Source: an uncultured Gammaproteobacteria bacterium
GTDB taxonomy: Bacteria > Patescibacteriota > Patescibacteriia > CAZGFX01
Length of the DNA: 64,000 nt
Assembly: GCA_964524845.1 (NCBI GenBank)
Contig: CAZGFX010000003.1
Coordinates: 31,051-95,050 of the forward strand
Direction of reading: 5' to 3'
Shown here: positions 4,182 to 55,265 of the stretch, piece by piece
Layout: every line of letters begins with the position of its first letter
How positions within the stretch are numbered: the stretch's first letter is position 1
The notes under the pieces: model-generated
Seen by the model: the letters and a program-made list of their open reading frames with translations, nothing else
What the model was told of the DNA's origin: nothing
The model's database searches: none
Position numbers and translations under genes: made by a program

Positions 4182-4267
4182 AGCGAGTGGTGACGTGACG
4201 GGGCGAGAATCCTAGAAAAAATATTAAATTATGTTGCTGTGCCATCCGTAGCGCGAAGCGCGTAGGA

Positions 4268-10256: not shown

Positions 10257-10426
10257 TCGTATAAAGTATAATACATTAGAAAACGGGACACCACTGCCCC
10301 TTCCTCTCCTTATAATACAACATTTTTGCTAACTTATCCACAATCTTATCCACTTAATATTTCTAGTATAAAAAAAGCGTTACCCGATTGTCGAATAACG
10401 CTTATGATACAAGGGACAAAATTTAA

Positions 10427-10506
10427 ATGTAGTTAAAAGTTACACGGCAGATGCTGAAATGGTGCAGATTCTGAGACAAACTCAGGATTAAAGATTCGGC
10501 ATGACA
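10427..10506. repeat. Family-A palindromic element (inverted copy)
   Basis: Reverse-complement match to TGTCATGCTGAAC...TTTCAGCATCTGCCGTGTAACTTTTAACTACAT, the same element found at 15195 and 41411. Confidence 0.8.
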
Positions 10507-10535
10507 GTGTGTAATATAATCCGCAATTCTCCTTC

Positions 10536-10600
10536 TCGTAATTTCCTCCTCTCATAATTCGTAATTCGCAATCTCCCTCTCGTAATTCGTTCACCCTGTG
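10536..10600. repeat. Family-C microsatellite-like repeat (CTCGTAATTCG units)
   Basis: Repeated cgtaattcg units. The same motif array recurs at 21258-21340. Confidence 0.75.
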
Positions 10601-14165: not shown

Positions 14166-14303
14166 ATGGCAAAAGCAAAAAAAGCCACTTCAAAAGCAAG
14201 AGAGGCTCGCAAGGGCGGTTCAAAAGCTCGCCCAAAAAAAGCAAAATCAGCTACACGAAAAGCTGTTAAAGTTCGTTCAAAAGGTCGAAAAGAAAGCAGA
14301 TAA
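14166..14303 (+). CDS. Small Lys/Ala-rich basic protein (45 aa), paralogue 1 of 3
   Basis: MAKAKKATSKAREARKGGSKARPKKAKSATRKAVKVRSKGRKESR. Own terminator at 14321-14353. A conserved 5' hairpin AGGAT-N7-ATCCT lies upstream. Confidence 0.55.
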   Translation: MAKAKKATSKAREARKGGSKARPKKAKSATRKAVKVRSKGRKESR

Positions 14304-14320
14304 TTTTTTCAAATAAAAAA

Positions 14321-14353
14321 ACAATCCCGAAATTATTTCAGGGTTGTTTTTTT
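14321..14353 (+). terminator. Intrinsic terminator after K/A-rich gene 1
   Basis: caatcccgaaattatttcagggttg hairpin plus a T-run. Confidence 0.55.
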
Positions 14354-14537
14354 ATTAAAAATTTTTCATATATAAAAAATATTTACATGTAATTTTACAA
14401 AATACAAACACCTAAAAATGCTCTTATATAAGCGATTAAATTGCATTTTTAATAAAAAAATATTTTTTTAATCATTTTACAAAAAATTTTGAAAAAACAT
14501 GATATGTGTATAATTATTTATATATTGCACAAATTTA

Positions 14538-14566
14538 TTCACAAATTGCAAAAATAAGCGTATAAT
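14538..14566 (+). promoter_or_regulatory. Promoter for K/A-rich gene 2 (TTCACA-17-TATAAT)
   Basis: Directly read. Followed by the AGGATGAATAATCCT hairpin at 14573-14587. Confidence 0.45.
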
Positions 14567-14603
14567 TATATCAAGGATGAATAATCCTATTTTAATTACT
14601 TCT

Positions 14604-14720
14604 ATGGCTATGAAGAAAAAAGCAAAGAAAGTAGCAAAGCGAAAACCAGCTGCAAAGAAAAAGACAGCTAAAAAGGCAAAACGCTCTTCTAAGAAAAAGA
14701 CTGCTCGCCGTCGCAAATAA
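14604..14720 (+). CDS. Small Lys/Ala-rich basic protein (38 aa), paralogue 2
   Basis: MAMKKKAKKVAKRKPAAKKKTAKKAKRSSKKKTARRRK. Shares the upstream motif tacttctATGGC with paralogue 1. Own terminator at 14739-14765. Confidence 0.55.
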   Translation: MAMKKKAKKVAKRKPAAKKKTAKKAKRSSKKKTARRRK

Positions 14721-14879
14721 TACTTTCTTTACGAAAATCCCGTGCCGATCTTTGGTACGGTTTTTTCTTTTCTAAATATATTTTGTACACACAGATATGC
14801 ACTTCTCGCTTAAAAAAATTTTTTAAATGCTTTATAGTATGTTTGAGGATGAATAATCCGCTCTAACTAATTTTCATAA

Positions 14880-15143
14880 ATGAAACATATGGCAACGAAA
14901 AAGAAAGCTGTTAAAAAATCAGCGGCTAGAAAAGCCATTAAAAGAGTTCGAGCAAAAGGCAAAAAAACCACAAAAAAACGACCCGCGAAAAAAAGTGCCT
15001 CAAAAAAGACAACAAAAAAATGCTCCTGTTGCGGAATGCCGATGTCGCGATGCATAAAAAAAGCTATGAAAAACACAATGTCAGTTGAACCAACTCTTAT
15101 AGCATTTCCTCGAGCAAGTGATACTCCCGATACACAATTTTAA
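14880..15143 (+). CDS. Lys-rich basic protein (87 aa), paralogue 3, with a Cys-containing C-terminal extension
   Basis: K/A/R-rich N-terminal 50 aa. Same GGATGAATAATCC upstream hairpin. Terminator at 15153-15193. Confidence 0.5.
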   Translation: MKHMATKKKAVKKSAARKAIKRVRAKGKKTTKKRPAKKSASKKTTKKCSCCGMPMSRCIKKAMKNTMSVEPTLIAFPRASDTPDTQF

Positions 15144-15194
15144 AAACACAAAACAACCCCGCCATCGCTAACGCTCGGCGGGGTTGTTTTTTTA

Positions 15195-15319
15195 TGTCAT
15201 GCTGAACCTTTAGTCCTGAGTTCGTCTCAAGATCTGAACTCGTTTCAGCATCTGCCGTGTAACTTTTAACTACATTGTCATGCTGAACTCGTTTCAGCAT
15301 CTGCCGTGTAACTTTTAAT
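15195..15319. repeat. Family-A palindromic element: one full copy plus one internally deleted copy
   Basis: TGTCATGCTGAACCTTTAGTCCTGAGTTCGTCTCAAGATCTG...TTTCAGCATCTGCCGTGTAACTTTTAACTACAT at 15195-15275. A 44-nt deleted version lies at 15276-15319. Confidence 0.85.
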
Positions 15320-15360
15320 AATATGGGTTATAAGTTTTCCTAGAAAACATTGTATCAAGG

Positions 15361-15440
15361 TAGATCCTGAAGGGAATATACAGATCCTGAAACAAGTTCA
15401 GGATGACATTGTTCAGGATAAAATTGTTCAGCATGACAAC
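15361..15440. repeat. 20-bp tandem YAGATCCTGAAR units with hairpin partners (ATCCTGAA...TTCAGGAT)
   Basis: Direct reading. The same arrangement recurs at 41575-41645 and 41741-41812. Confidence 0.8.
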
Positions 15441-15545
15441 ATTAATATTCCGCTCTCGTTCCGCTCAGCCGAACTTGTCACATCGAGCGACTATTGTAAT
15501 CTCAAACCAACATTGTCATCTCGAACGAAGTGAGAGATCCACAAA
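15441..15545. repeat. Family-B element (iterated TTGTCACMTCGA motifs ending ...CTCGAACGAAGTGAGAG)
   Basis: Matches copies at 38385, 55118 (reverse orientation) and 59925. Confidence 0.75.
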
Positions 15546-15568
15546 CAAAAAACCACCGCTAACGGTGG
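15541..15568 (-). terminator. Intrinsic terminator of the 23S-5S unit
   Basis: ccaccgttagcggtgg hairpin followed by tttttttgttt on the minus strand, immediately after the 5S gene. Confidence 0.7.
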
Positions 15569-15580
15569 TTCGTATGTATA

Positions 15581-15716
15581 GAAGACAAGGTATTGGCGAT
15601 TACCTACTCTCCCAGGTCATAAGACCTAGTACCATCGGCCCGCAAGGACTTAACTGCCGGGTTCGGAATGTGACCGGGTGTACCCCCTCTGGAAGTATCA
15701 CCAATACTCTGTCTTC
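15581..15716 (-). rRNA. rrf: 5S rRNA
   Basis: Helix I pairing gaagacagagtattggtga / tcgccaataccttgtcttc, and an internal CCGAACCCGGCAGTTAAG loop-B/C region. Ends are approximate. Confidence 0.8.
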
Positions 15717-15819
15717 TATAATTTTTGTGATGAATAAAAATGAAATATCACAAACGCATTTTTCGCACGCATACTGAAAAAGAAAGAATGAATCGTATTA
15801 TATACTCATATATATGTGC

Positions 15820-18905
<3,086 letters not shown>

Positions 18906-19071
18906 ACATATACGAGTAGATACTTACTCACTTCTTTACTTTTACTAATTTGTATGCGCGCGAAAATTACGTTTGTAATTTTCGCACGTTTATTCAACTG
19001 TCAACGAACCCTTATGTTGAATGACAATCAACTTTTATATATTATTCAAAAAATTCAACAAAAGCTCTCAT

Positions 19072-19100
19072 ATGATAGAGCAAAAAAAGGGCTAGGTCAA
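19072..19100 (-). promoter_or_regulatory. Promoter of the 23S-5S unit (TTGACC-17-TATCAT)
   Basis: Read on the minus strand about 160 nt upstream of the mature 23S 5' end. Confidence 0.45.
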
Positions 19101-19470
19101 GTGTATAAACCTCACATGTTGTTCACAGGATACATATTAATAAATAGCTTTGTTGACAGTCTTTTTTTAATTTTTTAATTTTAATCATAATAAAAAACAT
19201 AATAAAAACAAAAAACCCGCTCCATTAAGCGTGTTTTAAACAAATAATCTTTTTACTATTTTTTTTATTATCGGCCCCCCACTGTGCCTTACGGTATATT
19301 ATTCTTGAAAAATTGTCAAGTAGGTGGTGTCAATAACTTGTTTATAACTATTTTTTGTCGTTTTTTCAAGGTTTTTATTGGTTTTTTAGTGTTGACTTTT
19401 TACCGAAAATAAGATATTATTTAATGAAAAAACAAAATAAATTAAAAACAAAAAAATACGGGGGTACGCG

Positions 19471-20097
19471 ATGTACGAAATAATTGTCGTCTGCTCGAGC
19501 GCACTATTCTTTGCATCTGCTATAGATTATGTACGATGCGCATGGACCGAAAAAACAAAACCGGTTCCAGCAACATGGATACTTATGATGACAACTATGA
19601 GCTTGTCGTTCTGGATGTATTGGAATAGCCCGAACAAATCATGGACTGGAAACATTGGAGTTACAGCAGGATTAATGGCAAATTTTATAATTTTCAGTGG
19701 AGTTATTTTAAAGCACATTAAAAACAACACTCTTCATATCATGTTTGATACAGTACAAAAATGTTGTCTAGCCGGAGGATTTAGCACTGTAATTGTTTGG
19801 ATCATCACGAAAGATCCTTTGTTGTCATATGTTCTTGTACAAGGTATTGCTGTTATAGGGTATTTTGCGACAATAAAAAGATTATGGAGGGCACCATCAA
19901 GCACAGAACCGATGTTTTTGTGGATTGCAGTTGTATTTGCAAACTTACTTGCATTATATCCTGCATTCATAAAAGATGATGTATTTTCTTGGATATATCT
20001 TTCTCGTACAATACCATCAAGTATATTCATGGTATATCTCATAAAAAAAATAAATCGTCGTTCCATACAAAATAATTTTTCTTCAGAGTTGTCGTAA
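19471..20097 (+). CDS. Hypothetical six-helix membrane protein (tandem paralogue A)
   Basis: 208 aa, hydrophobic throughout. No family could be assigned with confidence. Confidence 0.55.
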   Translation: MYEIIVVCSSALFFASAIDYVRCAWTEKTKPVPATWILMMTTMSLSFWMYWNSPNKSWTGNIGVTAGLMANFIIFSGVILKHIKNNTLHIMFDTVQKCCLAGGFSTVIVWIITKDPLLSYVLVQGIAVIGYFATIKRLWRAPSSTEPMFLWIAVVFANLLALYPAFIKDDVFSWIYLSRTIPSSIFMVYLIKKINRRSIQNNFSSELS

Positions 20098-20179
20098 TAA
20101 AAGATTACGACACCTTTATAAGAAAAATAAACTAAAAACAAAAAAACACTCACCTATTTTTAGGTGAAAAGGAGGATTC

Positions 20180-20776
20180 ATGATTAGTCTCATATCAGGA
20201 ATTATTGTCTGCGCAAGTATAATTCCTTATGTAATCCGCACATATCAGAAAAAAATTGAGCCAAACATCGTATCGTGGTCGATATGGTCGATAATCGGAA
20301 TATCTTTGTTATTAAATTCTATCGCTGCAAAAACATTTGAAAATAATCCGTGGCCACTTGTTTTTAACACGATAAATCCAACTATAATTGCAATCATGGT
20401 CGCGATCAGATGGCATCGCGAACCATTATATCTGTATGAAAAAATATCCGGTATTATTGGAATCATTTCAATTGTGTTGTGGTTCATATTTCAAAACAAT
20501 CCATCACTTGCTGTTTTTTCACTAATACTGGCACTTGTTGCTGATATAGCGGCTGGTATCCCTACTTTTTTGTTTGTTATTAAAAAACCAGATAAAGAAC
20601 GTCCTTTCGTTTGGTTTATATTCGGAGTAGGATATGGTCTTTCTATATTTATACTTGGAAACGATTGGGTTGAATATCTTGTTCCGGGATATATGACACT
20701 TGCCGGAATTGCAATATCAATTCCTCCTATCATCTACAGAATAAAAAACTCAATCCCATTAAAAGAATGGGTTTGA
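20180..20776 (+). CDS. Hypothetical six-helix membrane protein (tandem paralogue B)
   Basis: 198 aa with similar topology. GGAGG RBS. Confidence 0.6.
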   Translation: MISLISGIIVCASIIPYVIRTYQKKIEPNIVSWSIWSIIGISLLLNSIAAKTFENNPWPLVFNTINPTIIAIMVAIRWHREPLYLYEKISGIIGIISIVLWFIFQNNPSLAVFSLILALVADIAAGIPTFLFVIKKPDKERPFVWFIFGVGYGLSIFILGNDWVEYLVPGYMTLAGIAISIPPIIYRIKNSIPLKEWV

Positions 20777-20838
20777 AAAATTTCACAAAACAAAAAAACA
20801 CCTCGCGAAATAGCTTGGTGTTTTTTAATTAGTATAAA

Positions 20839-21192
20839 TTATTTTTTATTTATTATTTCCGTCATCCATAAAACATTACCTTCGGAATCAATAAATTTAG
20901 TTATTAAGAAACTTTTTTGTTTTTTACATCGTTCTATAATTTTTACATTTTTTGATTCAAGTATTTCTGTTGCTTTTTTTATATTACGAACAGAAAAACC
21001 AATTCCAGCATGACTTTTGTTATTATTGTTTTTTATCTTCATCAAAGCAATATTAATTCCATTTGCACACGTCAGTTCGGACCATACCTTTGTATTATAA
21101 AGCTGTTTTAAGCCTAGTATATCTCTATAAAAAACGAGTGCTTTTTCCATATTGTGTACAGGAATACAGAAATGATTAATATGTTCAAACAT
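20839..21192 (-). CDS. VOC/glyoxalase-family protein
   Basis: N-terminal HxxIPVxNMEKALxFYRDILGL pattern typical of glyoxalase/bleomycin-resistance folds. Confidence 0.6.
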   Translation of the reverse strand: MFEHINHFCIPVHNMEKALVFYRDILGLKQLYNTKVWSELTCANGINIALMKIKNNNNKSHAGIGFSVRNIKKATEILESKNVKIIERCKKQKSFLITKFIDSEGNVLWMTEIINKK

Positions 21193-21257
21193 AATATTTT
21201 TAAATTATTACTTATATCTATATTTTATCATAAACCACAAAAAAACAATTGTTTTCT

Positions 21258-21340
21258 TCTCGTAATTCGTAATTCGTAATTCGTAATTATTATTTCTTCT
21301 CGTAATTCTCTCCTCTCGTAATTCGTAATTCGTAATTTCC
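21258..21340. repeat. Family-C CGTAATT(CG) microsatellite array
   Basis: cgtaattcgtaattcgtaattcgtaatt ... ctcgtaattcgtaattcgtaatt. Same motif as at 10536-10600. Confidence 0.8.
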
Positions 21341-22113
21341 TATTTGCTTCCCTTCACCACGACCTTCGTTCCAACATCGGCCCACGCATAGAGTTTTTCT
21401 ATTTCTCCATCTGGAACACGAACACAGCCATTTGTGCGCGGTTCTCCAACAATATTAATACCCAAAACACCGGTTGGCTTGATTGTTCTTCCGTGAATTC
21501 CATATTTTCCATTTGAAAAATCCATCCACCATGGCATCCATACTTTTCCGACTCGCGACCACGCTTTCGTAATCTTGTTGCGAACGGAGAATTCTCCCTT
21601 TGGTGTTTTCTGATCCGGTTTCCCTGTTGATACATAAAAAGAACCAACTTCTATATCACTGAGAAAATAAGTGAGTGTTTGTTTATCTGTATTTATAATA
21701 ATTTGTTTTTCGAGTTTTATTTCACCTTTGATTCGCGGATCGTATCCATTATCAATTTCTGTCTTATCATAATGTCCGTCGCCATCCGTATCCCGATTAA
21801 TCATTGATAATTTGTTTTTGAGTTCCATCGCATCCGAAAGCCCGTCACCATCAAAATCAGTTTCATCAAGACGCTTTCCGGCGCTATGTGGACTGTATCC
21901 ACTGGCAATTTCCACATTATCATCATATCCGTCACAATCCGTGTCTTTCTGATTCGGATTCGTTCCATAAACAGTTAACTCTATTTGATCGGATATCGTA
22001 TCGCCATCAGAATCTATTGAAACAACATCTTCTTGAGCAAAACAAAACACAGGTAATATACACAACAACCCGCATACAAATAAATTTTTAATCAAGAATT
22101 GGACCAACTTCAT
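21340..22113 (-). CDS. Secreted L,D-transpeptidase (YkuD domain) with thrombospondin type-3-like Ca-binding repeats
   Basis: Signal peptide. DxDxDG-type repeats (DSDGDTISD, DTDCDGYDD, DFDGDGLSD, DTDGDGHYD). C-terminal ...HGT...TNGCVRV catalytic Cys motif. Confidence 0.75.
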   Translation of the reverse strand: MKLVQFLIKNLFVCGLLCILPVFCFAQEDVVSIDSDGDTISDQIELTVYGTNPNQKDTDCDGYDDNVEIASGYSPHSAGKRLDETDFDGDGLSDAMELKNKLSMINRDTDGDGHYDKTEIDNGYDPRIKGEIKLEKQIIINTDKQTLTYFLSDIEVGSFYVSTGKPDQKTPKGEFSVRNKITKAWSRVGKVWMPWWMDFSNGKYGIHGRTIKPTGVLGINIVGEPRTNGCVRVPDGEIEKLYAWADVGTKVVVKGSK

Positions 22114-23113
22114 ATCGTTCTAATGTTCGAGGAGAAATGTTTTTAATCGGACCGGATTGATATTTTTTAAGCACCTCCGGCGAAGGAATGTATCGTAAAA
22201 CATCTTTTTCTATCATATATATTCGCTTTGTCTCCGTGTTACGAACAAGCATACCGCTTTGTATGGATCGTTCGTTAACGATAGGATTATATCCACTTGC
22301 AATCTCAGCACCATCCGAATATCCATCGTTATCCGTATCTGCAACAAATAAGTTTGTTTTGTGTTTCAGCTCTTCTTTTTTTGTTAAACCATCCTTATCG
22401 CCATCTGTATCTACGGATTTCGAAAGTTTGTTTGTTGTAAACAGCACAACCGGACTTCCTGTCTTTGTCTTTTTCGGATGCACATAATTACGAAGAGAAT
22501 TCATAATCACAGTGTATGAATATACATAATTCTTACCGCGGCGCGTGCCAGGTTCCTGTGTAATAAACTCCTGTTTTGTGTCATCATATCCTGAAATGAC
22601 GAACACATGATAATCCGGTCCTCCGTTTCGAAAGTTTGGGTTTTTGAGATCCTTGCCATGCGCTAGCGCTATAACTGGTCGACCTTCGTCAATTTCTTTT
22701 TTTATATCATCAAGCGTAGGCTTTTCTTTTATAATCGTCTCGAAAGAGAAAAAATTGCTTGCGAGCATATCTATATCTTTTGCATCGGTATCCTCATAAT
22801 ATCCTAGAACATTTTTTTGTATATCAACAATTGAAAGAATATCACGCGCCGCCGTATCCACATCAAGTGCGTTCCCAGTATAAAAATGTTCCACCATGAC
22901 AAGAGTCGCCTCCTCACACGCCTCATGCCATGGGGCTGACCAGTCTCCTTTTGGCGCTTGTACAGTAAAAGGAACCGGTAGGTTTTTCGGCTTGGAAATG
23001 ACTTTTTCTTTTTGTTCAGATGGCTTTGTTGGAATAACTACATTGGTCGCCTTCGTATAGTTTCCATACAAAAAAAACACAGGAAAAACAATAATGAAAA
23101 CAAGATATTTCAT
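22088..23113 (-). CDS. Secreted C39-like (papain-fold) peptidase-domain protein with TSP3-like repeats
   Basis: WHEACEEA Cys and DYHVFVISGYDD His in the expected order. DTDGDKDG and DTDNDGYSDG repeats. Overlaps the downstream LDT gene by 26 bp. Confidence 0.55.
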   Translation of the reverse strand: MKYLVFIIVFPVFFLYGNYTKATNVVIPTKPSEQKEKVISKPKNLPVPFTVQAPKGDWSAPWHEACEEATLVMVEHFYTGNALDVDTAARDILSIVDIQKNVLGYYEDTDAKDIDMLASNFFSFETIIKEKPTLDDIKKEIDEGRPVIALAHGKDLKNPNFRNGGPDYHVFVISGYDDTKQEFITQEPGTRRGKNYVYSYTVIMNSLRNYVHPKKTKTGSPVVLFTTNKLSKSVDTDGDKDGLTKKEELKHKTNLFVADTDNDGYSDGAEIASGYNPIVNERSIQSGMLVRNTETKRIYMIEKDVLRYIPSPEVLKKYQSGPIKNISPRTLERYEVGPILD

Positions 23114-23191
23114 ACACTAAGTATATCAAAACATTAGAAAACAAAAAAGGAACACACAACACAATGTATTCCTTAAAATATTGTTTTGTAA

Positions 23192-23734
23192 TTATTGTAT
23201 CTGAAGAGTTTCTAACATCTTCATATGCGCATCATCAGATGCATCGAAATAAATTTCGTAATTATAATTTGATCCAATAACCAAATAAATATCAAGTTTG
23301 TTCTCCGTTCCTCCTGCAGTACCCAAAAACTGATATGCGACATGTCCTGCTATTGTTGTTTTCTTCTCGCTCAAAATTTTGGAAATAACAGATCCATCTT
23401 CCTGTTTTCCTTGAGATTCATAATATTTTTTGTAATCATCGAGTTTCATATGGTGCGCATATATCATAAGCGGTCTATGCTGTCCCTCAAATCCTTCAAA
23501 AAAGAAAAATATACGGTCTTTTCCATTGCTTTCTGAAACTCGTGAACCACACTTGTTAATTGAAAACTTAAAATCAGCGCTCGTATACAACTGATCACTC
23601 GTGCATGAAACTTTTTTCAAACTCTCATCAATAGGTTTTGGATCGGTGTTCGTATCAACTGGTTTATCCGTATTAAAAAGAGAGCACGACGCAAGAAACA
23701 CGGAAAGAAACGAGAATAAAAATATTTTTTTCAT
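23192..23734 (-). CDS. Hypothetical lipoprotein
   Basis: Start reset to MKKIFLFSFLSVFLASC, which has a lipobox. A TTGCAA-17-TATTAT promoter lies upstream. Confidence 0.55.
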   Translation of the reverse strand: MKKIFLFSFLSVFLASCSLFNTDKPVDTNTDPKPIDESLKKVSCTSDQLYTSADFKFSINKCGSRVSESNGKDRIFFFFEGFEGQHRPLMIYAHHMKLDDYKKYYESQGKQEDGSVISKILSEKKTTIAGHVAYQFLGTAGGTENKLDIYLVIGSNYNYEIYFDASDDAHMKMLETLQIQ

Positions 23735-23785
23735 ATGATTATAATGATAATACGAAAAAAACACCTTTTTTGCAAATAAAAAACA

Positions 23786-23818
23786 ACTCTTAAAAACTGA
23801 GTTGTGTTTACATAACAA
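23786..23818 (-). terminator. Intrinsic terminator ending the 16S/tRNA-Ile transcription unit
   Basis: acaactc...gagttgt hairpin followed by ttttttattt on the minus strand. Confidence 0.5.
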
Positions 23819-23916
23819 AATGAAAAACAAAAGATAGTCTGCCATCCGTAGCGCGAAGAGTGAATTGGTGGATTTCAGTGGCCCCGCCACGAGTGAGAAG
23901 CGAAGCGACGAACGAG

Positions 23917-23993
23917 TGGTGGGCGTACCAAGAATCGAACTTGGGACCTCAACATTATCAGTGTTGCGCTCTAACCAGCTGAGCTATACGCCC
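23917..23993 (-). tRNA. tRNA-Ile (GAT)
   Basis: GGGCGTATAGCTCAGCTGGTTAGAGC...CTGATAA anticodon loop...GGTTCGATTC...CCA. Confidence 0.9.
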
Positions 23994-24170
23994 GTGAAAA
24001 ATATTTTATAAGTCTAATACTATATACTATTTGATTAAACATCAATAGTTTGGTAACCCGCCCTGCAGACGAACGAAGTGAGTCGTGCAGGGAGCTATAC
24101 GCCCGTGAAAAATATATTCTAAATAAATAGTATTGAACCTTGAAAAAAACATCAATGGCTTGGTAACCCG
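23978..24170. repeat. Tandem roughly 115-bp duplication in the 16S/tRNA-Ile spacer, including a 24-bp copy of the tRNA-Ile 5' end
   Basis: gagctatacgcccgtgaaaaatat occurs at 23978 and 24093. catcaatNGNttggtaacccg occurs at 24050 and 24150. The hairpin ccctgcagacgaacgaagtgagtcgtgcaggg lies between them. Confidence 0.8.
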
Positions 24171-24624
24171 AATATTACAAAATACTGCTCAATGATAATA
24201 TATTTTTTTATCTTTTTCAATACTATGGACTTTGAACTGTTTTATATTACTTGAAATATTTGAGACAAACGCGTTTTTAATAAAAAACGACACCTTCCAT
24301 AAAGAAAGATACCGTTCACGTATAGTGTTATTATTATATCTAATTTTATACTTTTGTCGAGATTATTTTGATTTTATAATCTCCATATACAACCAATAAA
24401 ACATTTTTAGAAACAAAAAACGCCAGATTTCGATAATTCACAAGCAAAAAATTAAAAACTCATACAAAATAAAAAATGTTAGATTTCGCAAAATCTAACA
24501 TTTTTTTAACAACAGAATATAATAACCAGACTACTGTCCCACTTCCGATCATCCGTCTGTACAGAGCGGACAATCTCGACCTGCTTCGTAAAAGCAAGTT
24601 TGCTTTCACACCATATATCCCTAG

Positions 24625-26122
<1,498 letters not shown>

Positions 26123-26275
26123 CAAAACATCTGCCGCGAAAAAAATCGCGAAAGATATCAAATTTTGGTTTATAAAGGAATTGGGACCGTAATATCTCAA
26201 ACCAAGATATTGACGGTCTGGTTATTATATTCTGCTGTCAACGTACCAAATTGACCTCTTACGAAGTCGTGTGTG

Positions 26276-31568: not shown

Positions 31569-31957
31569 ACCTAAATTTAGTTAAACTAGCCTAAAAATTA
31601 ATTAAAGACAGAGGAATAATAGAGAGTGAAATGAGTTTTGTCAATAATAAGCCATCTACATGTTACGAAACAACCTTCCGTATCGTATAATCGTATATAA
31701 TAGTATATAAAGACTGAAAAATATTGATTATTTAGAAAAAACGCTCTTATCTATCTAAAAACCTCTGTTTACAAGATTTTTTTAACTTAAACACAACTAG
31801 GGCTTGACAAATCCAACCAAATAGTATATCATTATAAGATTTAAAAGTAATTTAAATAACACACACTAATCGAGAAGTTGGTGTGAAAACAATAAACGAA
31901 AACAAGGCATAGAATTTTATGAGGCGGAAGTAAATTACATTTTTTAAACCCGTCCTG

Positions 31958-32003
31958 ATGGATAACTTCATCGGGACAGGAATAAAGAAAATAATTAACA
32001 GTA
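31958..32003. repeat. 45-bp element, copy 1 of 2, flanking the surface-protein gene
   Basis: ccgtcctgatggataacttcatcgggacaggaataaagaaaat here versus cgccctgatagaattatctatcggggcaagaataaagaaaat at 34512. Confidence 0.7.
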
Positions 32004-34469: not shown

Positions 34470-34511
34470 AAACACTTCGCAAAACAACAAAAAAGTTTAT
34501 TAACTTTAACA

Positions 34512-34556
34512 CTCGCCCTGATAGAATTATCTATCGGGGCAAGAATAAAGAAAATT
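34512..34556. repeat. 45-bp element, copy 2 of 2
   Basis: See 31958-32003. Followed by the terminator hairpin ccgccgagaacaaagtctcggcgg plus T-run at 34561-34592. Confidence 0.7.
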
Positions 34557-34612: not shown

Positions 34613-35605
34613 TTATTCCGCCAATTTTATAATACGAGAAATAAGTTTTTTATAAGAAACTCCTTCTGCTTCCATAAGCATCGGATACATTGATATATTG
34701 GTAAAGCCGGGAAGCGTATTGATTTCATTTATATATACATTGTTATTTTTAAGAAAAAAATCTATCCTGGCAAATCCAGTACAATCACAAAGCTTATATA
34801 CACGACTGGCTAAATCCCTTATTTCTTTCTCCTGTTTTTTCGTTATTTGCGCAGGAATCTGTGTCTTAGTCATTCCTTTTTTATATTTGTCATCATAATC
34901 ATAAAACTCTTTCGTAAGAATCAATTCTCCCGGACAAGAAATAACCAAATCATTGTTTCCAAGAACAGCAACCTCAAGCTCTCTATGACCGACAAGACCT
35001 TCTTCTATTATAATCTTTGAATCATGTTGATAAGCTTCGTGTATAGCGTAATTAATTTTCGAAAAATTACTGATTTTTGTAATTCCAACTGAAGAACCAG
35101 AATTTGCTGGTTTGACATACAAAGGAAATGAAAAACTGTTTTTAATTTCTTTTAGAATTCCGGTGATTTCGCTTTTTGAATTTCGAATAAAATCAATTAT
35201 TTTAAATTTTGTTTGTGGAACAAGATGTCCTAAAAGATGAGCTTTAAAAACGCCCTTATCCATACATAATGCGGAACTTAAAACACGACAACCACAATAC
35301 GGAATCTTTTGAATTTCAAACAATGATTGCAAAATTCCATCTTCTCCATATTTTCCATGTGTTACAGGAAATGCGATATCAAAATATTTTTTGAAATTAC
35401 TTGGTGTTATTTCTTTTCTTTCACTTATGTCCTTATATTTATCAATCGATTTTACTATAAAAAAACCTCCTTTTTTGTCCCAAAAAACACAAATTGGAAT
35501 ATATTTGTTTTTATCAATGTTTTTATAAACATTCTGAGCAGACGATAAAGAAACGTCAAACTCATTACTCATTCCACCAAAAAATATTCCTATCTTTTTT
35601 TTCAT
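34613..35605 (-). CDS. ddl: D-alanine--D-alanine ligase
   Basis: MKKKIGIFFGGMSNEFDVSLSSA N-terminus and ATP-grasp architecture. The start codon lies 1 nt after the smc stop. Confidence 0.85.
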   Translation of the reverse strand: MKKKIGIFFGGMSNEFDVSLSSAQNVYKNIDKNKYIPICVFWDKKGGFFIVKSIDKYKDISERKEITPSNFKKYFDIAFPVTHGKYGEDGILQSLFEIQKIPYCGCRVLSSALCMDKGVFKAHLLGHLVPQTKFKIIDFIRNSKSEITGILKEIKNSFSFPLYVKPANSGSSVGITKISNFSKINYAIHEAYQHDSKIIIEEGLVGHRELEVAVLGNNDLVISCPGELILTKEFYDYDDKYKKGMTKTQIPAQITKKQEKEIRDLASRVYKLCDCTGFARIDFFLKNNNVYINEINTLPGFTNISMYPMLMEAEGVSYKKLISRIIKLAE

Positions 35606-38384: not shown

Positions 38385-38530
38385 ACACTCGCTTCGCTCA
38401 ACCCCCGCAAAGCGGGATCCCGTCTTGCGGGAATTGTCACCTCGAACAAAGTAGCCTGTCCCGACGAATGTCGGGAAGAAGTCTTCTTGCTCCATGACTT
38501 TTGACTTTTGACACATTCGCTTCGCTCAGT
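38385..38530. repeat. Family-B element bounded by CGCTTCGCTCA direct repeats
   Basis: cactcgcttcgctcaacccccgcaaagcgggatcccgtcttgcgggaattgtcacctcgaac...cattcgcttcgctcag. It shares about 40 nt almost exactly with 59990-60040. Confidence 0.8.
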
Positions 38531-40198: not shown

Positions 40199-40293
40199 AT
40201 GTGCAAAGAATGAACAATTATTTAATTTTAAAGCTTTTAAAAAGCATTAATGAACAAACAGAAAATAATCGTACAAAAATATGAACGATTTAT

Positions 40294-40491
40294 TTACTTG
40301 TTGGTATTGAGATTCGCTTTGACGTTTACCTTAACGTCTTTTTTGTAGTATCCGCACGCAGAACACGCATGATGAGGTAGTGTTGATGTTCCGCATTGCG
40401 AACATATGTTAACGGAAACAGTTTCAAGCGCATGATGACCTCGACGAGCTCGAGTTCTTCGTTTTGAATATCGTTTTGACGGAAGACCCAT
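40294..40491 (-). CDS. rpmF: 50S ribosomal protein L32
   Basis: Basic N-terminus and a CxxC...CxxC zinc ribbon (CSQCG...CSACGYY). Confidence 0.75.
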   Translation of the reverse strand: MGLPSKRYSKRRTRARRGHHALETVSVNICSQCGTSTLPHHACSACGYYKKDVKVNVKANLNTNK

Positions 40492-40845
40492 ATACTAAGA
40501 TCATTACTGATTAATCTGATGCTATGTGTATATTTTTATATAAAAACACACATCTGCACCGCAACTATATACGTTATTTCGGTCTTTGTAAAGCCTAAAA
40601 AACGCCAAAGTGTTTGAAAAAATATGTTTTTTTATAAAATCATATTAAAAGTGCATAAACTATGGACAAAGTGTGGATAATATGTGATTATAATTAAATT
40701 AAAATAAACAGTTATTTGGCTAAGGTAAGACGATAAATCGTATTTTTCTTATTTTTAACATCTTCTTTGAAATTGACATTTTCTTTTTATGATGCTAACA
40801 TAAACATGCTCGTTAAAAAGGAATTCTGATACGTGCTTTTATATG

Positions 40846-41057
40846 TGTGTTGACGACAAGCATGGAAGTTTTTCTCTAAGTACATCCGGCTCAGGCTTGA
40901 TGTCGCTAGAGAAAAGTTTTCTTCAACACACATATGAGTGCGTGTTTCATAAGTAAAGCAGCTTAGGAAGTGTGTTGACGACAAGCATGGAAGTTTTTCT
41001 CTAAGTACATCCGGCTCAGGCTTGATGTCGCTAGAGAAAAGTTTTCTTCAACACACC
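40846..41057. repeat. Two 86-bp palindromic MITE-like copies (TIR GTGTGTTGA...TCAACACAC) separated by 38 bp
   Basis: 40846-40931 and 40970-41055 are near-identical. Each is a long imperfect hairpin with 9-bp terminal inverted repeats. Confidence 0.85.
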
Positions 41058-41085
41058 TCCCAGGCTGTTTTTTTGTTTTACAATA

Positions 41086-41402
41086 AATTGAAGCGAGCCG
41101 AAGTGCTCGCATCAAATTGGATGAGACATCTTCCTGACATCCGTCAGGACAGGCGCTTTCGTGCTCGATGTGACAAGCTCCATAAAGCGATAGCGTGCGG
41201 GGTATGTAGAGATATTTTTGGATGAAAAGGATAAGCGACTTGTTCGAGAGAACATAAAAATATAAATCATGAAGCGAGCCGAAGTGCTCGCATCAAATTG
41301 GATGAGACATTTTCCTGACATCCGTCAGGACAGGCGCTTTCGTGCTCGATGCGACAATGTTGGTCGAGGTGACAAGTTCCGCAAAGCGATAGCGTGCGGG
41401 GT
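41086..41402. repeat. Two roughly 120-bp direct repeats (gaagcgagccgaagtgctcgcatcaaattggatgagaca...gcgatagcgtgcgggg)
   Basis: Copies at 41086-41205 and 41270-41402. The second carries a 21-nt insertion resembling family B (gtcgaggtgacaag). Confidence 0.85.
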
Positions 41403-41410
41403 GTTAATAT

Positions 41411-41575
41411 TGTCATGCTGAACCTTTAGTCCTGAGTTCATCTCAGGATCTGCGCCCTTTCAGCATCTACCGTGTAATTTTTAACTACATTGTCATGCTG
41501 AACCTTTAGTCCTGAGTTCATCTCAGGATCTGCGCCCTTTCAGCATCTGCTGTGTGACTTTTGATAATATGAGTA
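41411..41575. repeat. Two tandem family-A palindromic elements
   Basis: Copies at 41411-41490 and 41491-41575. They match 15195-15275 at about 90% identity. Confidence 0.85.
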
Positions 41576-41812
41576 GATCCTGAAACAGGTACATAGATCC
41601 TGAAAGGAATACATAGATCCTGAAATAAATTCAGGATGACAAGGTCAGTTCAGAATGACACAGGCACATTGTATCAAGGAAGATTCTGAAACGAGTTCAG
41701 AATGACACAGGCACATTGTATCAAGGAAGATTCTGAAACAGATATATAGATCCTGAAAGGAATACACAGATCCTGAAATAAATTCAGGATGACATTGTTC
41801 AGGATGGTGGTG
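41575..41812. repeat. GATCCTGAAA 20-mer arrays flanking two 45-bp tandem copies (gttcagaatgacacaggcacattgtatcaaggaagattctgaaac)
   Basis: 20-mers at 41581-41640 and 41746-41800. 45-mers at 41648-41692 and 41695-41739. Confidence 0.85.
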
Positions 41813-41816
41813 CAAA

Positions 41817-43703
41817 TTACTGTGACAAAGCACCCGAAGAATCATTGGTATTTGATAACCCTGGGTTGTTGTTCTCTCCATTTTCATCAACAGATATCAC
41901 ATCTGTAGAAACAGTTGGTGCATTTGGATCTTTTCCTCTCATGCATATCGCGGGCCATGCTTTATAATTACTGAAAAAGGTTTCTTTTTCTTCGTGTCCA
42001 TCAGAATATTTTACAACATAATCAAAAGATGCCTTGACTCCTTTATGAGCCCTCTCTGTACACTTCTCTTCTCCAAATTTTAACTCATCTGTTTCCACAT
42101 ATTGAACTGGGCCTGGGTCAGTCCACCCCCATACAGACGGTGTTGTTCTATATGCTGTTCGCCCATCTTTTGTTCCCCAAAAATCAAAAAATACATTTGT
42201 TCCCTCAACACGTCCACTTATTAATATATAATTACCTGTATCATTTAAAAATCTTAAATCTGGTTTCGGATAATATATTGTGGCATCAACCCCCGGAAGC
42301 CCATCTTCGAGATAATAAGTAACATTATACGAGTGGTTTCTTCGCTCAAGAATTTTGAGTCCTGATGAAAGCGCGGCTCGAAAAACAGTTGTTCCAATCT
42401 GACATAGTCCACCACCATATTCTTTCTGTGTTTTATTTCCTTTTATAACCAACTCTGGTAAATATCCTTGTTCCGCAGTCGTACTACCAAGAAGCGCTAT
42501 AAGAGAAAACTCCTCGTTCGGAGCAAGAAGTGTTCCATCAACCGTATGAACACCTATTTTTATATTATGAATACGATTTGCTGGTGATCCTGCAAAATTT
42601 GATTCACCAGTTCCAACAACCTCTGTAATACCTAATGTATTAACATCTTTGGTGTGTATTTTTGGCAAAGCCTCTTTCACAATAAGTGAAACTGAATTTG
42701 TACGAGTATTAAACAAGGACTCTGTGATCGACTCAACTAAGTTGTCCATATCAATTTCTCGTCCGTTTCTTGAAGGAATAAACTCCTTAACCTTATTATC
42801 TTTTATTTCAAGTTTGGCATCCTGTGGAGCACGCTCAATTACAGAACGCATTTCTTTAATAGATTCGTATAACTTTTCTTTCGATATGTTTAGAGCCGGT
42901 TTTTTTGTTTCTTCATTAAAAGACAGAACTATCCATTTGATATATTCTTTATAAAAGAACTTCCATTTTTGCTTCTCATATATTAAAGAAATTGCTGGGA
43001 GTACTGATTTTAGTTCATCAAAAACAGTTAGAAGCGGGGACGCATCGCTTTCAGAAAAACGAGGATCAGTATTTTTTTTGATCAAGTTGATCGGTGTTAT
43101 TGAAAAAGAAGAAACCATTGAACGAGTGTCTATTAAAGCCGCGTCCAGATCAAACTCGATTCCTTTTTGAGCCCGTGTTATTTCATATGAACCGTCTTCG
43201 TGCCACAAGAGTTCAGGCTCTGTTCCTTTTTGAACAAGTGTTTCGAGACTTTCTTCCATTGTCATGCGCCACAAACTATCATTAATTGAATATATAAAAT
43301 TTGTTTTAATCGGAAAAATCATATGATTTAGACGTTCCCACATGGTGCCTGTTCTACCTGTTTCATATGCAAGAAGAACTGTTTTTTGAATATCAACATC
43401 AACAATTTCCTGAGCAAGCGCTGGATCGTCTGTTAATATTCTTGATGGAATGTTTATAGGAGAATGCCCGTCAATTAAATATGTAAATCCTTTTGCAAGT
43501 GCTTCTTCTGTTTTTTCAGTCAAAAGTCTTTCCGCAGTCTCACTGCTCAAGCCACCAACGGCATATCCATCGACCGAAACATTTGGAAATATACGTCCTT
43601 CATACTGATATATATATAGGAAAACAACTAGAGATACAACAACAAGACACCCACACATTATAATGAGAGCATCGATAAAATATCTGACAAGTCGTTGAAT
43701 CAT
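41817..43703 (-). CDS. VanW-domain protein with an N-terminal membrane anchor
   Basis: ...EYGGGLCQIGTTVFRAALSSGLKILERRNHSY... matches the VanW conserved core. Confidence 0.7.
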   Translation of the reverse strand: MIQRLVRYFIDALIIMCGCLVVVSLVVFLYIYQYEGRIFPNVSVDGYAVGGLSSETAERLLTEKTEEALAKGFTYLIDGHSPINIPSRILTDDPALAQEIVDVDIQKTVLLAYETGRTGTMWERLNHMIFPIKTNFIYSINDSLWRMTMEESLETLVQKGTEPELLWHEDGSYEITRAQKGIEFDLDAALIDTRSMVSSFSITPINLIKKNTDPRFSESDASPLLTVFDELKSVLPAISLIYEKQKWKFFYKEYIKWIVLSFNEETKKPALNISKEKLYESIKEMRSVIERAPQDAKLEIKDNKVKEFIPSRNGREIDMDNLVESITESLFNTRTNSVSLIVKEALPKIHTKDVNTLGITEVVGTGESNFAGSPANRIHNIKIGVHTVDGTLLAPNEEFSLIALLGSTTAEQGYLPELVIKGNKTQKEYGGGLCQIGTTVFRAALSSGLKILERRNHSYNVTYYLEDGLPGVDATIYYPKPDLRFLNDTGNYILISGRVEGTNVFFDFWGTKDGRTAYRTTPSVWGWTDPGPVQYVETDELKFGEEKCTERAHKGVKASFDYVVKYSDGHEEKETFFSNYKAWPAICMRGKDPNAPTVSTDVISVDENGENNNPGLSNTNDSSGALSQ

Positions 43704-44361: not shown

Positions 44362-44544
44362 ATTTGTTTTTACAATATATCGGCACTATAGCGCATTTTT
44401 CGTCTAACCACAAGCAAAAATGTGAAGAATTATAATTAAAAGAACTTGCTCATTATACTGCTTTTTCATTCGTCTGCGGGTCACATCGCTCGCGAGCGAC
44501 GTGACGGGGCAAGGAACCCGCAAAATAAAATAACACCTTATTTC

Positions 44545-44620
44545 TGGTGCTGAGAGCGGGAGTTGAACCCGCGACACAAGGATTTTCAGTCCTTTGCTCT
44601 ACCAACTGAGCTATCTCAGC
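44545..44620 (-). tRNA. tRNA-Phe (GAA), embedded between 19-bp perfect inverted repeats
   Basis: GCTGAGATAGCTCAGTTGGTAGAGC...CTGAAAA anticodon loop...CCA. The flanks taacaccttatttctggtg and caccagaaataaggtgtt are exact reverse complements. Confidence 0.9.
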
Positions 44621-44654
44621 AGGAAAGCACCAGAAATAAGGTGTTGAATAAAAA

Positions 44655-44729
44655 TGGTGACCCGTAGGGGAATCGAACCCCTGTTGCCAGGATGAAAACC
44701 TGGTGTCCTAACCCCTAGACGAACGGGCC
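44655..44729 (-). tRNA. tRNA-Glu (TTC)
   Basis: GGCCCGTTCGTCTAGGGGTTAGGACACC...TTTTCAT anticodon loop...GGTTCGATTCCCC...CCA. Confidence 0.85.
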
Positions 44730-44911
44730 GCGCAAGTCTTCATTCAAGACAAAGCTTTCTTATAATAAGGTGTTTTTTGATTCGCGTCAATGTATAAAAA
44801 CAATAAAAACAGGTCTTTTTTATACTTGATAATTTTATACGAAAATGATAAAAATATATGACAAATATGTACGATCAAATTATTGAAATAACATAAATAA
44901 AGGAGTTTCTT

Positions 44912-45388
44912 ATGAAACAAGTGCCAGATAAACATAAAAAGACAATCAAACGAATTTTGTGGACCGCGTGTTTTATTGACGAAGACGATTTGGAAAAAAT
45001 TAAAAACCATAGTCCATCTGTTCGAAAATCCTGCAAAAAAATACTTGCCCCAATTATGGAGCTTGTAGAATTCATATTTAAAACAATGGACCACAATCTT
45101 CTTATGCCTGCCGTAGAAGAAAATTGTAGCGAGTACATAAACAAATTTCTATCTTCCGAAGATGAACAAAAACCAACCCCAGAAGATTTTGCAAACATTA
45201 TTACTGCGTGCGAACAAACAGGAATAAGATTGCAAAAAGCATGGGCTCGGTACACCGAAAAACAAACCATTGAATTCATTATAGACAATCTTCGTTTACT
45301 TGAAACAATCGAAAGAGACAAAATAGAAGAAGGCATGAAACAACAAAAATTATTCAAGGACATCGAAGATTTTATATCAGAAAAATAA
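44912..45388 (+). CDS. Hypothetical cytoplasmic protein
   Basis: AAGGAG RBS. 158 aa with no recognisable motif. Confidence 0.55.
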   Translation: MKQVPDKHKKTIKRILWTACFIDEDDLEKIKNHSPSVRKSCKKILAPIMELVEFIFKTMDHNLLMPAVEENCSEYINKFLSSEDEQKPTPEDFANIITACEQTGIRLQKAWARYTEKQTIEFIIDNLRLLETIERDKIEEGMKQQKLFKDIEDFISEK

Positions 45389-45449
45389 CGAACTTATTTT
45401 AAAAGCTTGGGAAACACCCCAAGCTTTTTTTATAAAAACACTTTAAATA

Positions 45450-46903: not shown

Positions 46904-47032
46904 ATGTGTTTATAAAGAATCAAATCTACATATAGTGTAGCACAAAAAGAATATCGGCCAAAGACTGACCTACCTTTGATCAAAACAAAAAACGCCTTTT
47001 ATTAAAAAGGCGTTTCTTTATATGACGTACTA

Positions 47033-47500: not shown

Positions 47501-47514
47501 GGTACCCCCTTTTG

Positions 47515-49598: not shown

Positions 49599-49643
49599 TT
49601 TTTACAAAAAACCGGTTCAAAGAGCCGGTATTTTTTATTGAAA

Positions 49644-55262: not shown

Positions 55263-55265
55263 TTG

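Follow-up and report, generated by a model that had tools for sequence, protein, structure and literature searches.

The CGTC-tagged repetitive extragenic palindromes (REPs), families CGTC-1 to -4, were defined by Di Nocera, De Gregorio and Rocco in 2013 as repeats in which a head of CGTC, or often TGTC, stays unpaired and is followed by a stem of 8-9 bp with complementary A-T in its first two positions, by 4-5 nt of loop and by a tail of 3 nt. They form mostly head-to-head dimers, no dedicated transposase is associated with them, and they occur in five phyla, including the Neisseria dRS3 and the Rickettsia repeats RPE-4/RPE-6 (PMC3733652). The Neisseria NTS, generalised as Ssn-related motifs (SRM), are the sites of the Ssn nucleases, single-domain GIY-YIG proteins of ~94 aa that bind and cut these hairpins only as single-stranded DNA (ssDNA) (Chenal et al., Nat Commun 2025; PMC11893778). 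Ssn binding depends above all on the C that follows the palindrome and cleavage on the 3 nt upstream of it, while the loop is dispensable, and a split NTS has been shown to be cut; ssn genes are typically flanked by the repeats (architecture NTS-ssnA-NTS), and the system modulates natural transformation, in Neisseria by restricting the integration of incoming DNA (PMC11893778). Here we analyze family B, a set of dispersed non-coding repeats in a 64-kb stretch of DNA from an uncultured bacterium of the candidate phyla radiation (CPR; the whole stretch is referred to as the window). We propose, with a probability of about 0.7, that the family-B elements, together with a second family (A), are mosaics of tagged hairpins that belong to the CGTC/TGTC-REP superfamily and the Ssn-related motifs, with recognition of the Ssn type. 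The case is a known kind of repeat in a host with a tiny genome, with stem variants that lie outside the published motif.

Family-B repeats in the window

The initial annotation described family-B elements at five loci, built from an iterated 12-14-nt word and bounded by a second word. The iterated motif, of the TTGTCACMTCGA type, is present at all five. With at most one mismatch, TTGTCACMTCGA has 12 matches in the window against 0.60 expected, a number reached in none of 100 shuffles; one of these matches, at 16193 inside the 23S gene, is probably due to chance. The boundary word CGCTTCGCTCA has 7 matches at the same threshold against 0.58 expected, and no shuffle reaches 7. Bounding on both sides holds at 38385-38530 and in the 55-kb array only, and not at the other loci: there is a single left-hand copy with one mismatch at 59974, and a 9/11 version at 15455-15465. 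The tandem 57-60-bp units described after clpP correspond to 57 nt x 2.2 at 55122-55248 according to Tandem Repeats Finder, which also reported an array of 18 nt x 3.7 at 60018-60083 with the consensus TTGTCACCTCGACCAACT. The insert described at 41340-41400 is one 18-nt unit by which two 98%-identical paralogues (41089-41176 and 41270-41357) differ. This unit, TTGTCACCTCGACCAACA, lies at 41358-41375 on the minus strand and is identical to 60054-60071. Copies in both orientations are seen in the window, and the general description of a dispersed non-coding family with iterated 12-18-nt units at the 3' ends of transcription units was borne out; the family is probably related to miniature mobile DNA.

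The 12-14-nt word is the 5' arm of a hairpin, composed of TGTC, a 5-bp stem beginning with A, the dinucleotide GA and a 2-bp stem. The full family-B unit reads 5'-(T)TGTC, A-NNNN, GA, NN, GNA-type loop, NN, GA, NNNN-T, C(TC)-3', and all complete units in the window combine TGTC with an A-initial stem and a C after the stem. Folding as RNA, a check suggested in the initial annotation, gave the expected hairpin for B units, with energies of -4.9 to -10.3 kcal/mol: the lower stem has 5 bp, an internal 2x2 GA/GA loop separates it from an upper stem of 2 bp, and the latter is capped by a tri- or tetraloop. For whole elements of 100-330 nt, the global folds were uninformative. Units are found complete, with extra 5' or 3' arms beside a complete unit, nested in the loop of another unit, or paired with the opposite-strand mini-hairpin TGAGCGAAGCGA. 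The latter is a minimal hairpin of like design (GA-GC-GAA-GC-GA), and the boundary word CGCTTCGCTCA is its reverse complement. Three clusters have one to three extra 5' arms ahead of the complete unit with a period of 18-20 nt. According to the alignment, a second tagged hairpin is nested inside the B-hairpin loop at 38435-38485, 41123-41175 and 41304-41356. The family-B features of the window are as follows.

15441-15545, plus strand: cluster 1, between the terminator of the plus-strand open reading frame (ORF) 14880-15143 and the rRNA-operon terminator
15455-15465, plus: degenerate boundary word of cluster 1
15475-15491, plus: 5' half-site TTGTCACATCGAGCGAC of cluster 1
15493-15511, plus: degenerate 5' half-site of cluster 1
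15514-15541, plus: complete hairpin of cluster 1, TGTC-ATCTC-GA-AC-GAA-GT-GA-GAGAT-CCA
38385-38530, plus: cluster 2, with boundary words at 38390-38400 and 38518-38528
38401-38434, plus: hairpin of cluster 2, ACCCCCGC...GCGGGAAT
38435-38485, plus: B hairpin of cluster 2, TGTC-ACCTC-GA...GAA-GAAGT-C
38457-38475, plus: nested tagged hairpin in the loop of the latter, TGTC-CCGAC-GAAT-GTCGG
41085-41420, minus: two paralogous composite units, with outer B hairpins at 41123-41175 and 41304-41356 (TGTC-ACATC-GA...GAA-GATGT-CTC) and in each a nested hairpin TGTC-CTGAC-GGAT-GTCAG
41358-41375, minus: extra 18-nt half-site, in the second 41-kb unit only
55118-55250, minus: cluster 3, 57-nt unit x 2.2
55204-55231 and 55147-55174, minus: complete hairpins of cluster 3, TGTC-ACCTC-GA-CC-AAA/GAA-GG-GA/AA-GAGGT-CTC
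55122-55132, 55179-55189 and 55236-55246: opposite-strand mini-hairpins TGAGCGAAGCGA of cluster 3
59973-60102, plus: cluster 4, with a boundary word at 59974-59984
59985-60018, plus: hairpin of cluster 4, ACTCCCGC...GCGGGAAT
60018-60035, 60036-60053 and 60054-60071, plus: 18-nt 5' half-sites of cluster 4
60073-60101, plus: complete hairpin of cluster 4, TGTC-ACCTC-GA-AC-GAAT-GT-GA-GAGGT-CTC

The repeat of cluster 4 is 87% identical to 38389-38443. As first delimited, this element begins at 59925, right after the tRNA-Leu gene (59842-59924).

Family A belongs to the same superfamily and is built on the same plan. It takes the forms TGTC-ATGCTGAA-ctcgt-TTCAGCAT-CTG and TGTC-AT(C/T)CTGAA-...-TTCAG(G/A)AT-CT, at 10.4, 15.2-15.4 and 41.4-41.8 kb, and it likewise includes long forms with nested hairpins, arrays of 5' arms (15396-15438) and arrays of 3' arms (41574-41630). 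Its features are listed below.

10411-10510, minus: family-A locus in the 3' untranslated region (UTR) of ftsK, with the long-form hairpin 10448-10506, TGTC-ATGCCGAA...TTCAGCAT-CTG
15193-15440, both strands: family-A cluster
15195-15254, plus: long form with nested hairpin
15276-15303, plus: unit TGTC-ATGCTGAA-ctcgt-TTCAGCAT-CTG
15381-15408, minus: unit TGTC-ATCCTGAA-cttgt-TTCAGGAT-CTG
15396-15438: half-site repeats, 15 nt x 2.9
41409-41800: family-A cluster, with long forms at 41411-41468 and 41491-41548 (plus)
41614-41641, 41680-41707 and 41767-41794, minus: short hairpins
41574-41630 (20 nt x 2.8) and 41728-41783: iterated 3' half-sites with a 20-nt period

Comparison with described repeat systems

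The repeats of the window share with the CGTC REPs the TGTC head (a frequent published variant), 8-9 stem positions, a short unpaired tail starting with C, the lack of a nearby transposase, and an occurrence in several phyla with unusually similar sequences across them. Family A fits the published stem and loop, with 8 bp (ATGCTGAA or ATCCTGAA) and a loop of 5. Family B has 9 stem positions, of which the first pair is A-T and the second C-G or T-A; it differs from the CGTC REPs in the two G.A mismatches within this '9-bp' stem and in its 3-4-nt loops. Further differences are the tails, which are CTC or CTG in the window and CCA in the published families, the many head-to-tail arrays and half-sites of the window where the published families are mostly head-to-head dimers, and the host, since the 2013 paper reports no such repeats in CPR bacteria (PMC3733652).

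The likeness to the SRM/NTS/dRS3 group extends to the unpaired (C/T)GTC head followed by A-(T/C), the variable but pairing stem, the invariant C after the stem, the free loop and the many copies clustered at genes. In addition, the same hairpin type is tied in other genomes to single-domain GIY-YIG genes of ~95 aa, often on both sides (see below). The SRM head HGTCWY matches 9/9 complete hairpins of the window and the tail RNCYNB matches 7/9. A C directly follows the stem in every complete A- and B-type unit, and two inner nested hairpins have G, not C, in this position. The determinants of Ssn binding and cleavage are the very invariants that were derived here independently. The differences from this group lie in the stems (5 bp, tandem G.A and 2 bp with a GNA loop in family B; 8 AT-rich bp in family A), the prominence of half-site arrays and nested units, the Patescibacteria/CPR host and the lack of an ssn gene within the window.

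Two other kinds of repeats were compared. The GTAG REPs, bacterial interspersed mosaic elements (BIMEs) and REPINs of E. coli and Pseudomonas, which are associated with REP-associated tyrosine transposases (RAYT), are also short tagged extragenic palindromes that form mosaics in 3' UTRs, with a tetranucleotide 5' of the hairpin foot and recognition as ssDNA, the latter being predicted for the window repeats. Their tag is GTAG or GTGG instead of TGTC, and their partner is of the HUH/Y1 type, whereas a GIY-YIG partner is likely here and no RAYT was found. This assignment was rejected, as all units carry TGTC and the 40 ORFs scanned gave no match to Y1_Tnp. The small dispersed repeats (SDR) of heterocystous cyanobacteria, reportedly described by Elhai and colleagues in Genome Res in 2008, are said to be units of ~20 nt, nested in one another and lacking target-site duplications like the repeats studied here, but of other sequence families. 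We know of no link between SDRs and tagged hairpins or a nuclease. A literature search with the literal sequence words returned primers only, and no sequence in the supplements of PMC3733652 and PMC11893778 could be matched. Rfam gave no match in the elements, in the whole window at gathering thresholds or in 40200-41820 at E-values up to 10.

Distribution across phyla and covariation of the stem

A collection of genomes (596 Gb) was scanned with a 16-nt pattern, and most of the 120 loci listed were chance matches inside genes. When the 3' arm was required as well, eight real hairpins remained, in six loci from six phyla, with the complete hairpin found in loci of Anaerolineales, Nitrospiraceae, Hydrogenedentota, Dysgonomonas, Deferribacteraceae and Sandaracinaceae. 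The hairpin of Dysgonomonas sp. 25 (L040) is identical to 60073-60100 at 28/28 positions, and the Hydrogenedentota contig has hairpins in tandem and in inverted pairs. The scan of metagenomes detected the hairpin on at least 120 contigs with a GC content of 29-66%. Only 1 in 2.9 million viral contigs of IMG/VR has it, and carriage by phages was rejected.

The sequences used for the covariation test were anchored on the unpaired features only (TGTC, GA, GA and C). The 5-bp lower stem is fully paired in 32 of the 63 distinct anchored 28-mers, compared to about 0.5 expected by chance, and these paired sequences comprise seven stems (ACCTC, ATCTC, ATTTC, ATTCC, ACCCC, ACCCT and ATGCT). In a wider set, 12 distinct stems that pair were found in addition to the seeded one. 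Invariant features are the GTC head, the A-T pair that closes the stem, both GA dinucleotides and the C that follows the stem, while the middle base of the loop is free (GAAG, GGAG, GCAG, GTAG). Metagenome copies commonly have a head-to-head partner in their flanks (...GAAATGACAgttttTTGTCACC...); of this partner only the mini-hairpin TGAGCGAAGCGA is left in the window, where head-to-tail arrays are frequent.

These data bear on the preference of the initial annotation for iteron-type arrays over hairpins, in which 18-nt direct repeats would be bound by a transcription factor or by a protein of replication or partition. The spacing of the arrays is indeed regular, with periods of 18 nt (60018-60083, 3.7 copies), 15 nt (15396-15438, 2.9 copies) and 20 nt (41574-41630, 2.8 copies). 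However, the iterated word is a hairpin 5' arm plus the tag, and the stem varies across copies and phyla and stays complementary. Every array adjoins a complete hairpin and repeats an arm of that hairpin; such arrays are formed by 5' arms as well as by 3' arms, and in the metagenomes only about 3% of the copies are preceded by extra 5' arms. Moreover, no replication initiator, partition or regulator gene was found alongside among the 40 ORFs scanned, and a distribution over at least six dispersed chromosomal loci, with identical units in unrelated phyla, is unlike that of an origin or operator. We consider iteron-like arrays very improbable.

As a separate observation, tandem arrays with periods of 189 and 110 nt, respectively, are present in Dysgonomonas sp. 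25 (L040 5650-6120) and in a Hydrogenedentota metagenome-assembled genome (L039 1150-1500). In each array unit, two tagged hairpins whose stems differ stand tail to tail. The same modules are assembled into larger repeats in unrelated phyla.

Placement relative to genes and terminators

Cluster 1 lies between two convergent terminators, a hairpin at ~15156-15190 that serves the plus-strand ORF 14880-15143 and the minus-strand terminator 15571-15550 of the rRNA operon. Cluster 2 has the rnc stop codon (38557) on one side and the terminator 38384-38350 on the other, in antisense orientation within the rnc 3' UTR. Cluster 3 is found between the clpP stop codon (55105) and a bidirectional terminator (55265-55289), and cluster 4 downstream of tRNA-Leu. 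The ftsK-side family-A copy similarly lies between the stop codon and the terminator 10403-10375. The canonical terminators (15571-15550, 38384-38350, 55265-55289 and 10403-10375) are separate from the clusters and adjoin them. The terminator scan called none of the B units, which have no T-tract, and it placed three short family-A hairpins (15404, 41790 and 41637) among its weakest entries (3 G-C pairs), each hairpin being followed by CTGT or CTAT instead of a T-run. Intrinsic terminators were rejected as an identity of the units, given the missing T-run directly after them and the separate terminators nearby. The suggestion of a lineage-specific processing or termination signal fares no better, since the hairpin occurs in at least six other phyla, lacks a T-tract, stands beside separate canonical terminators and has a mixed orientation relative to transcription in the window.

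The main rival to the proposed tagged ssDNA sites is a role at the RNA level, in which GC-rich hairpins in 3' UTRs and tRNA trailers would block 3' exonucleases or act in processing or termination, the classical role of REPs. With a stop codon on one side and the terminator on the other, clusters 2 and 3 and the ftsK copy are transcribed, the units fold as RNA, and E. coli REPs stabilise upstream mRNA (reviewed in PMC3733652). On the other hand, the orientation is mixed, so that the clpP and rnc mRNAs would bear the complement, with UC/CU instead of the conserved GA/GA, and little transcription is expected for cluster 1 between its convergent terminators. The 137 metagenome copies show no significant orientation bias relative to neighbouring ORFs, and no bias towards sense, with 13 copies in the (+,+) and 25 in the (-,-) arrangement, although the ORF calling was crude. 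An exonuclease block would also leave the conserved unpaired GTC head and C tail unexplained, and SsnA is inactive on RNA (PMC11893778). Hence we regard a primary RNA-level function as unlikely; it could exist as a side effect of the tagged repeats.

tRNA trailers and mobility

Shorter fragments beside tRNA-Cys, tRNA-Ile and tRNA-Phe had been described as family-B copies. Their common word GCGAAGC is not enriched in the window (6 occurrences compared to 4.3 expected), and this mini-hairpin was dropped as a tie between the tRNA trailers and family B. The repeats found there belong to families other than B:

4185-4267, minus: tRNA-Cys trailer, CCATCC-GTA-GCGC-GAA-GCGC-GTA-GGATGG plus CGTC-tagged GACGTGACGGGGC, not family B proper; terminator at 4181-4160
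23840-23916, minus: tRNA-Ile trailer, with TGCCATCCGTAGCGCGAAG in common with the tRNA-Cys trailer (19/19)
44461-44520, minus: palindrome distal to the tRNA-Phe terminator, CGTC-ACGTCGCTCG and CGAGCGATGT-GAC as its two halves

The word TGCCATCCGTAGCGCGAAG is located at 4240-4258 (tRNA-Cys) and 23840-23858 (tRNA-Ile). A further word, GACGTGACGGGGCRAG, is shared at 15/16 positions between 4192-4207 (tRNA-Cys) and 44498-44513 (tRNA-Phe), the 16th being degenerate (R) in the search pattern. Read along the tRNA strand, this repeat is a CGTC-tagged palindrome.

The initial annotation had also raised the possibility of a miniature element targeting tRNA genes. Such a transposon, either a miniature inverted-repeat transposable element (MITE) or a REPIN moved by a RAYT or IS200-type transposase, with a preference for tRNA 3' flanks, would account for the dispersed copies in both orientations, the 18-nt indel between the paralogues, the loop-nested units and the presence of some GC-rich repeat downstream of 4/6 tRNA clusters in the window. 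But only one of the five family-B loci abuts a tRNA gene, the 60 metagenome loci with the hairpin hold two tRNAs, neither of them adjacent, and the tRNA-trailer repeats are different families. No terminal inverted repeats were found, and the target-site duplications sought on the suggestion of the initial annotation are not visible in alignments of copies, where the ends are direct repeats of an internal module, as in the 38-kb and 55-kb copies. The tag is TGTC and not the RAYT-associated GTAG or GTGG. No Y1 (Y1_Tnp), DDE or other transposase domain was found in a Pfam scan of 40 window ORFs, and the precomputed Pfam table for 44584-59227 lists no transposase domain either. We thus hold a miniature transposon to be quite improbable. 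The iteron, MITE and tRNA-targeting readings were all rejected on the features that define them.

Linkage to small GIY-YIG genes

The loci seeded by the hairpin contain five small GIY-YIG ORFs. Four are intact and encode proteins of 93-98 aa that match PF01541 with E-values of 3e-15 to 7e-19, and the fifth (L157) is apparently frameshifted. Homologues of one of these small proteins include Patescibacteria proteins with 62-74% identity. Two Patescibacteria loci, which were retrieved by protein and not by hairpin, bring the number of independent small GIY-YIG genes to seven. A strictly defined B-type hairpin lies 6-115 nt from one end of the gene in 7/7 of them, while only 3.4% of the bases in the GIY-YIG loci are within 150 nt of such a hairpin. 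The linked proteins are assigned at the Pfam level (PF01541, four of the seven having been scanned); the Ssn clade corresponds to cd10448.

In the two Patescibacteria loci, every B-type hairpin in 20 kb is within about 400 nt of the GIY-YIG gene. The genes are bracketed by TGTC-ACTTC-GA...GA-GAAGT-CTC and TGTC-ATTTC-GA...GA-GAAAT-CTC, with a further bracketing hairpin TGTC-ATCGC-GAGCGAAGCGC-GGCGAT-CTC. Other bracketing elements are the A-type arm TTCAGGATGACA and a classical hairpin, GTC-ATTCCGGG-cttga-CCCGGAAT-C. These loci also hold A-type arms together with a hairpin that has a GAGCGAAGCG loop. One of the Patescibacteria GIY-YIG genomes probably also carries an RNase III that is 65% identical to that of the window, both genes being on a 960,449-bp contig from the same sample.

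The search for homologues of the small GIY-YIG protein gave 2,804 matches, and among the best 120 of these 2,804 most are on contigs shorter than 2 kb. Such short contigs are as expected if flanking hairpin repeats break assemblies.

Proposed mechanism and points of doubt

In the proposed mechanism, DNA that becomes single-stranded, through uptake in transformation or exposure in replication or repair, would allow the tagged strand to fold. An Ssn-type nuclease, small and with GIY-YIG as its single domain, would then bind the foot of the hairpin, with the C after the stem being critical, and would cut a few nucleotides 5' of the GTC tag. Clusters would build up where insertions are tolerated, from a stop codon or tRNA end to the intrinsic terminator or between convergent terminators. 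They would probably grow and shrink one arm (18 nt) at a time, through breakage with repair or through slippage where the strand is cut. By analogy with the described systems, the genome of the window may encode an Ssn-type nuclease elsewhere that would cut these sites, and the proposed mode of multiplication has the same standing.

Several observations weigh against this interpretation. A small-GIY-YIG profile detected no GIY-YIG ORF, even fragmentary, in six frames of the 64-kb window, so that for the window's genome the partner nuclease is a prediction. The L135 and L172 GIY-YIG proteins look more like the UPF0213 type, as judged by their 'EHxxG' motif. A search of the PDB with the L198 protein weakly matched the UPF0213 protein BH0048 (E = 0.003); there is no named Ssn structure in the PDB and no specific NCBIfam model. 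The published SRM pattern, HGTCWYN(0-2)YYVSBRHN(0-5)WNVSBRGN(0-2)RNCYNB, has 0 matches on both strands of the window, because it requires a GC-rich stem core and the stems here are AT-rich or have G.A mismatches. As DNA, single B hairpins have little stability (nearest-neighbour energies of -1.5 to -4.2 kcal/mol, not significant at z-scores of -1.1 to +0.7), so that the support for the fold rests on the comparative data. Finally, the search in relatives proposed in the initial annotation covered about 57 kb of syntenic, non-redundant DNA from the four nearest relatives available (RNase III 67-69% identical) and did not find the hairpins there; the elements are absent from the syntenic rpmF-nusB-rnc region and, in L253, from the region upstream of rpmF. 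Two of the assemblies of relatives, L125 and L126, represent one region.

Host DNA and other features of the window

The window is AT-rich, gene-dense bacterial DNA. According to a Pfam scan of 40 ORFs, its content is of the Patescibacteria/CPR type (VanW, YkuD, TSP3 repeats and a NusB-NUDIX fusion), and many proteins have no family match. One fragment matches its RNase III at 100% identity; the best of the other matches have 63-70%, and those with a name are Patescibacteria, Uhrbacteria, Falkowbacteria, Buchananbacteria and Komeilibacteria. The only close sequence found is a Logan contig (L121; run SRR12133404) that is 100% identical to 44584-59227, the next relatives being those with 67-69% identity in RNase III.

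The window has eight tRNA genes, and its rRNA genes are on the minus strand (16S at 24625-26123, 23S-5S at 15591-18909). The rRNA operon (15591-26123) is split by ~5 kb of protein genes, including glyoxalase, YkuD and a C39-like peptidase, between 16S/tRNA-Ile and 23S-5S, and tRNA-Ala and tRNA-Val lie 2 kb past 5S. The 23S match covers 3100 nt compared to the 2925-nt model, which indicates insertions in 23S. Between tRNA-Ala and the hairpin cluster, three tiny plus-strand ORFs (45, 47 and 87 aa; 14166-15143) are extremely rich in lysine and arginine, each followed by a terminator-like hairpin. Directly downstream of cluster 4 (60807-62903) are genes for a C-5 cytosine DNA methylase and then an HNH-domain protein, likely a restriction-modification pair.

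Other repeats were also noted. Upstream of rpmF lies a pair of direct repeats of 87 nt (40845-40931 and 40970-41056), with 100% identity and 125 nt apart. They form long imperfect hairpins (GTGTGTTGA...TTCAACACAC around TTTTCTCTA...TAGAGAAAA), have neither a TGTC tag nor an Rfam match, and could represent a small RNA or an element of another kind. The heptamer TCGTAAT is repeated 11 times at 21260-21337, and related CTCGTAATTCGTAATTCG words are found in the intergenic region 10520-10600, beside the family-A hairpin. A third dispersed repeat of 51 nt (31942-31992, 34505-34555 and 34900-34950), with the hairpin core CCCGTCCTGATGG...CATCGGGACAGG and CGTC/TGTC-like words, flanks the gene for an 805-aa secreted protein.

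ORFs of 67-127 aa run across the hairpin clusters at 15097-15300 (minus), 15403-15777 (plus) and 59793-60176 (plus), for example MLKRVQHDNVVKSYTADAETSS... They are repeat artefacts that are liable to be miscalled as hypothetical proteins, and the hairpins thus create spurious small ORFs such as 15097-15300 ('MLKRVQHD...').

Implications

A more far-reaching idea, which we offer as speculation and consider unlikely, is that GA-bracketed TGTC hairpins with arm arrays and nested copies are Ssn targets of a class of their own, very widespread but missed by current motifs. The nuclease itself would drive their multiplication by cutting 5' of the tag, with repair adding or removing one 18-nt arm, and in CPR bacteria, which live on scavenged DNA, the pair of nuclease and repeat would be a major control over which incoming ssDNA is recombined and which is degraded.

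The assignment to Ssn-related motifs gives the puzzling intergenic repeats of an uncultured bacterium with a reduced genome a concrete candidate function, as sites of an ssDNA nuclease. Stem variants that escape the published motif are a useful result, if unsurprising to a specialist. The published SRM search pattern is too narrow, as hairpins with G.A-bracketed loops and others with AT-rich stems have the same head and tail; since such variants stand beside small GIY-YIG genes in several phyla, CPR included, genome-wide surveys undercount the system.

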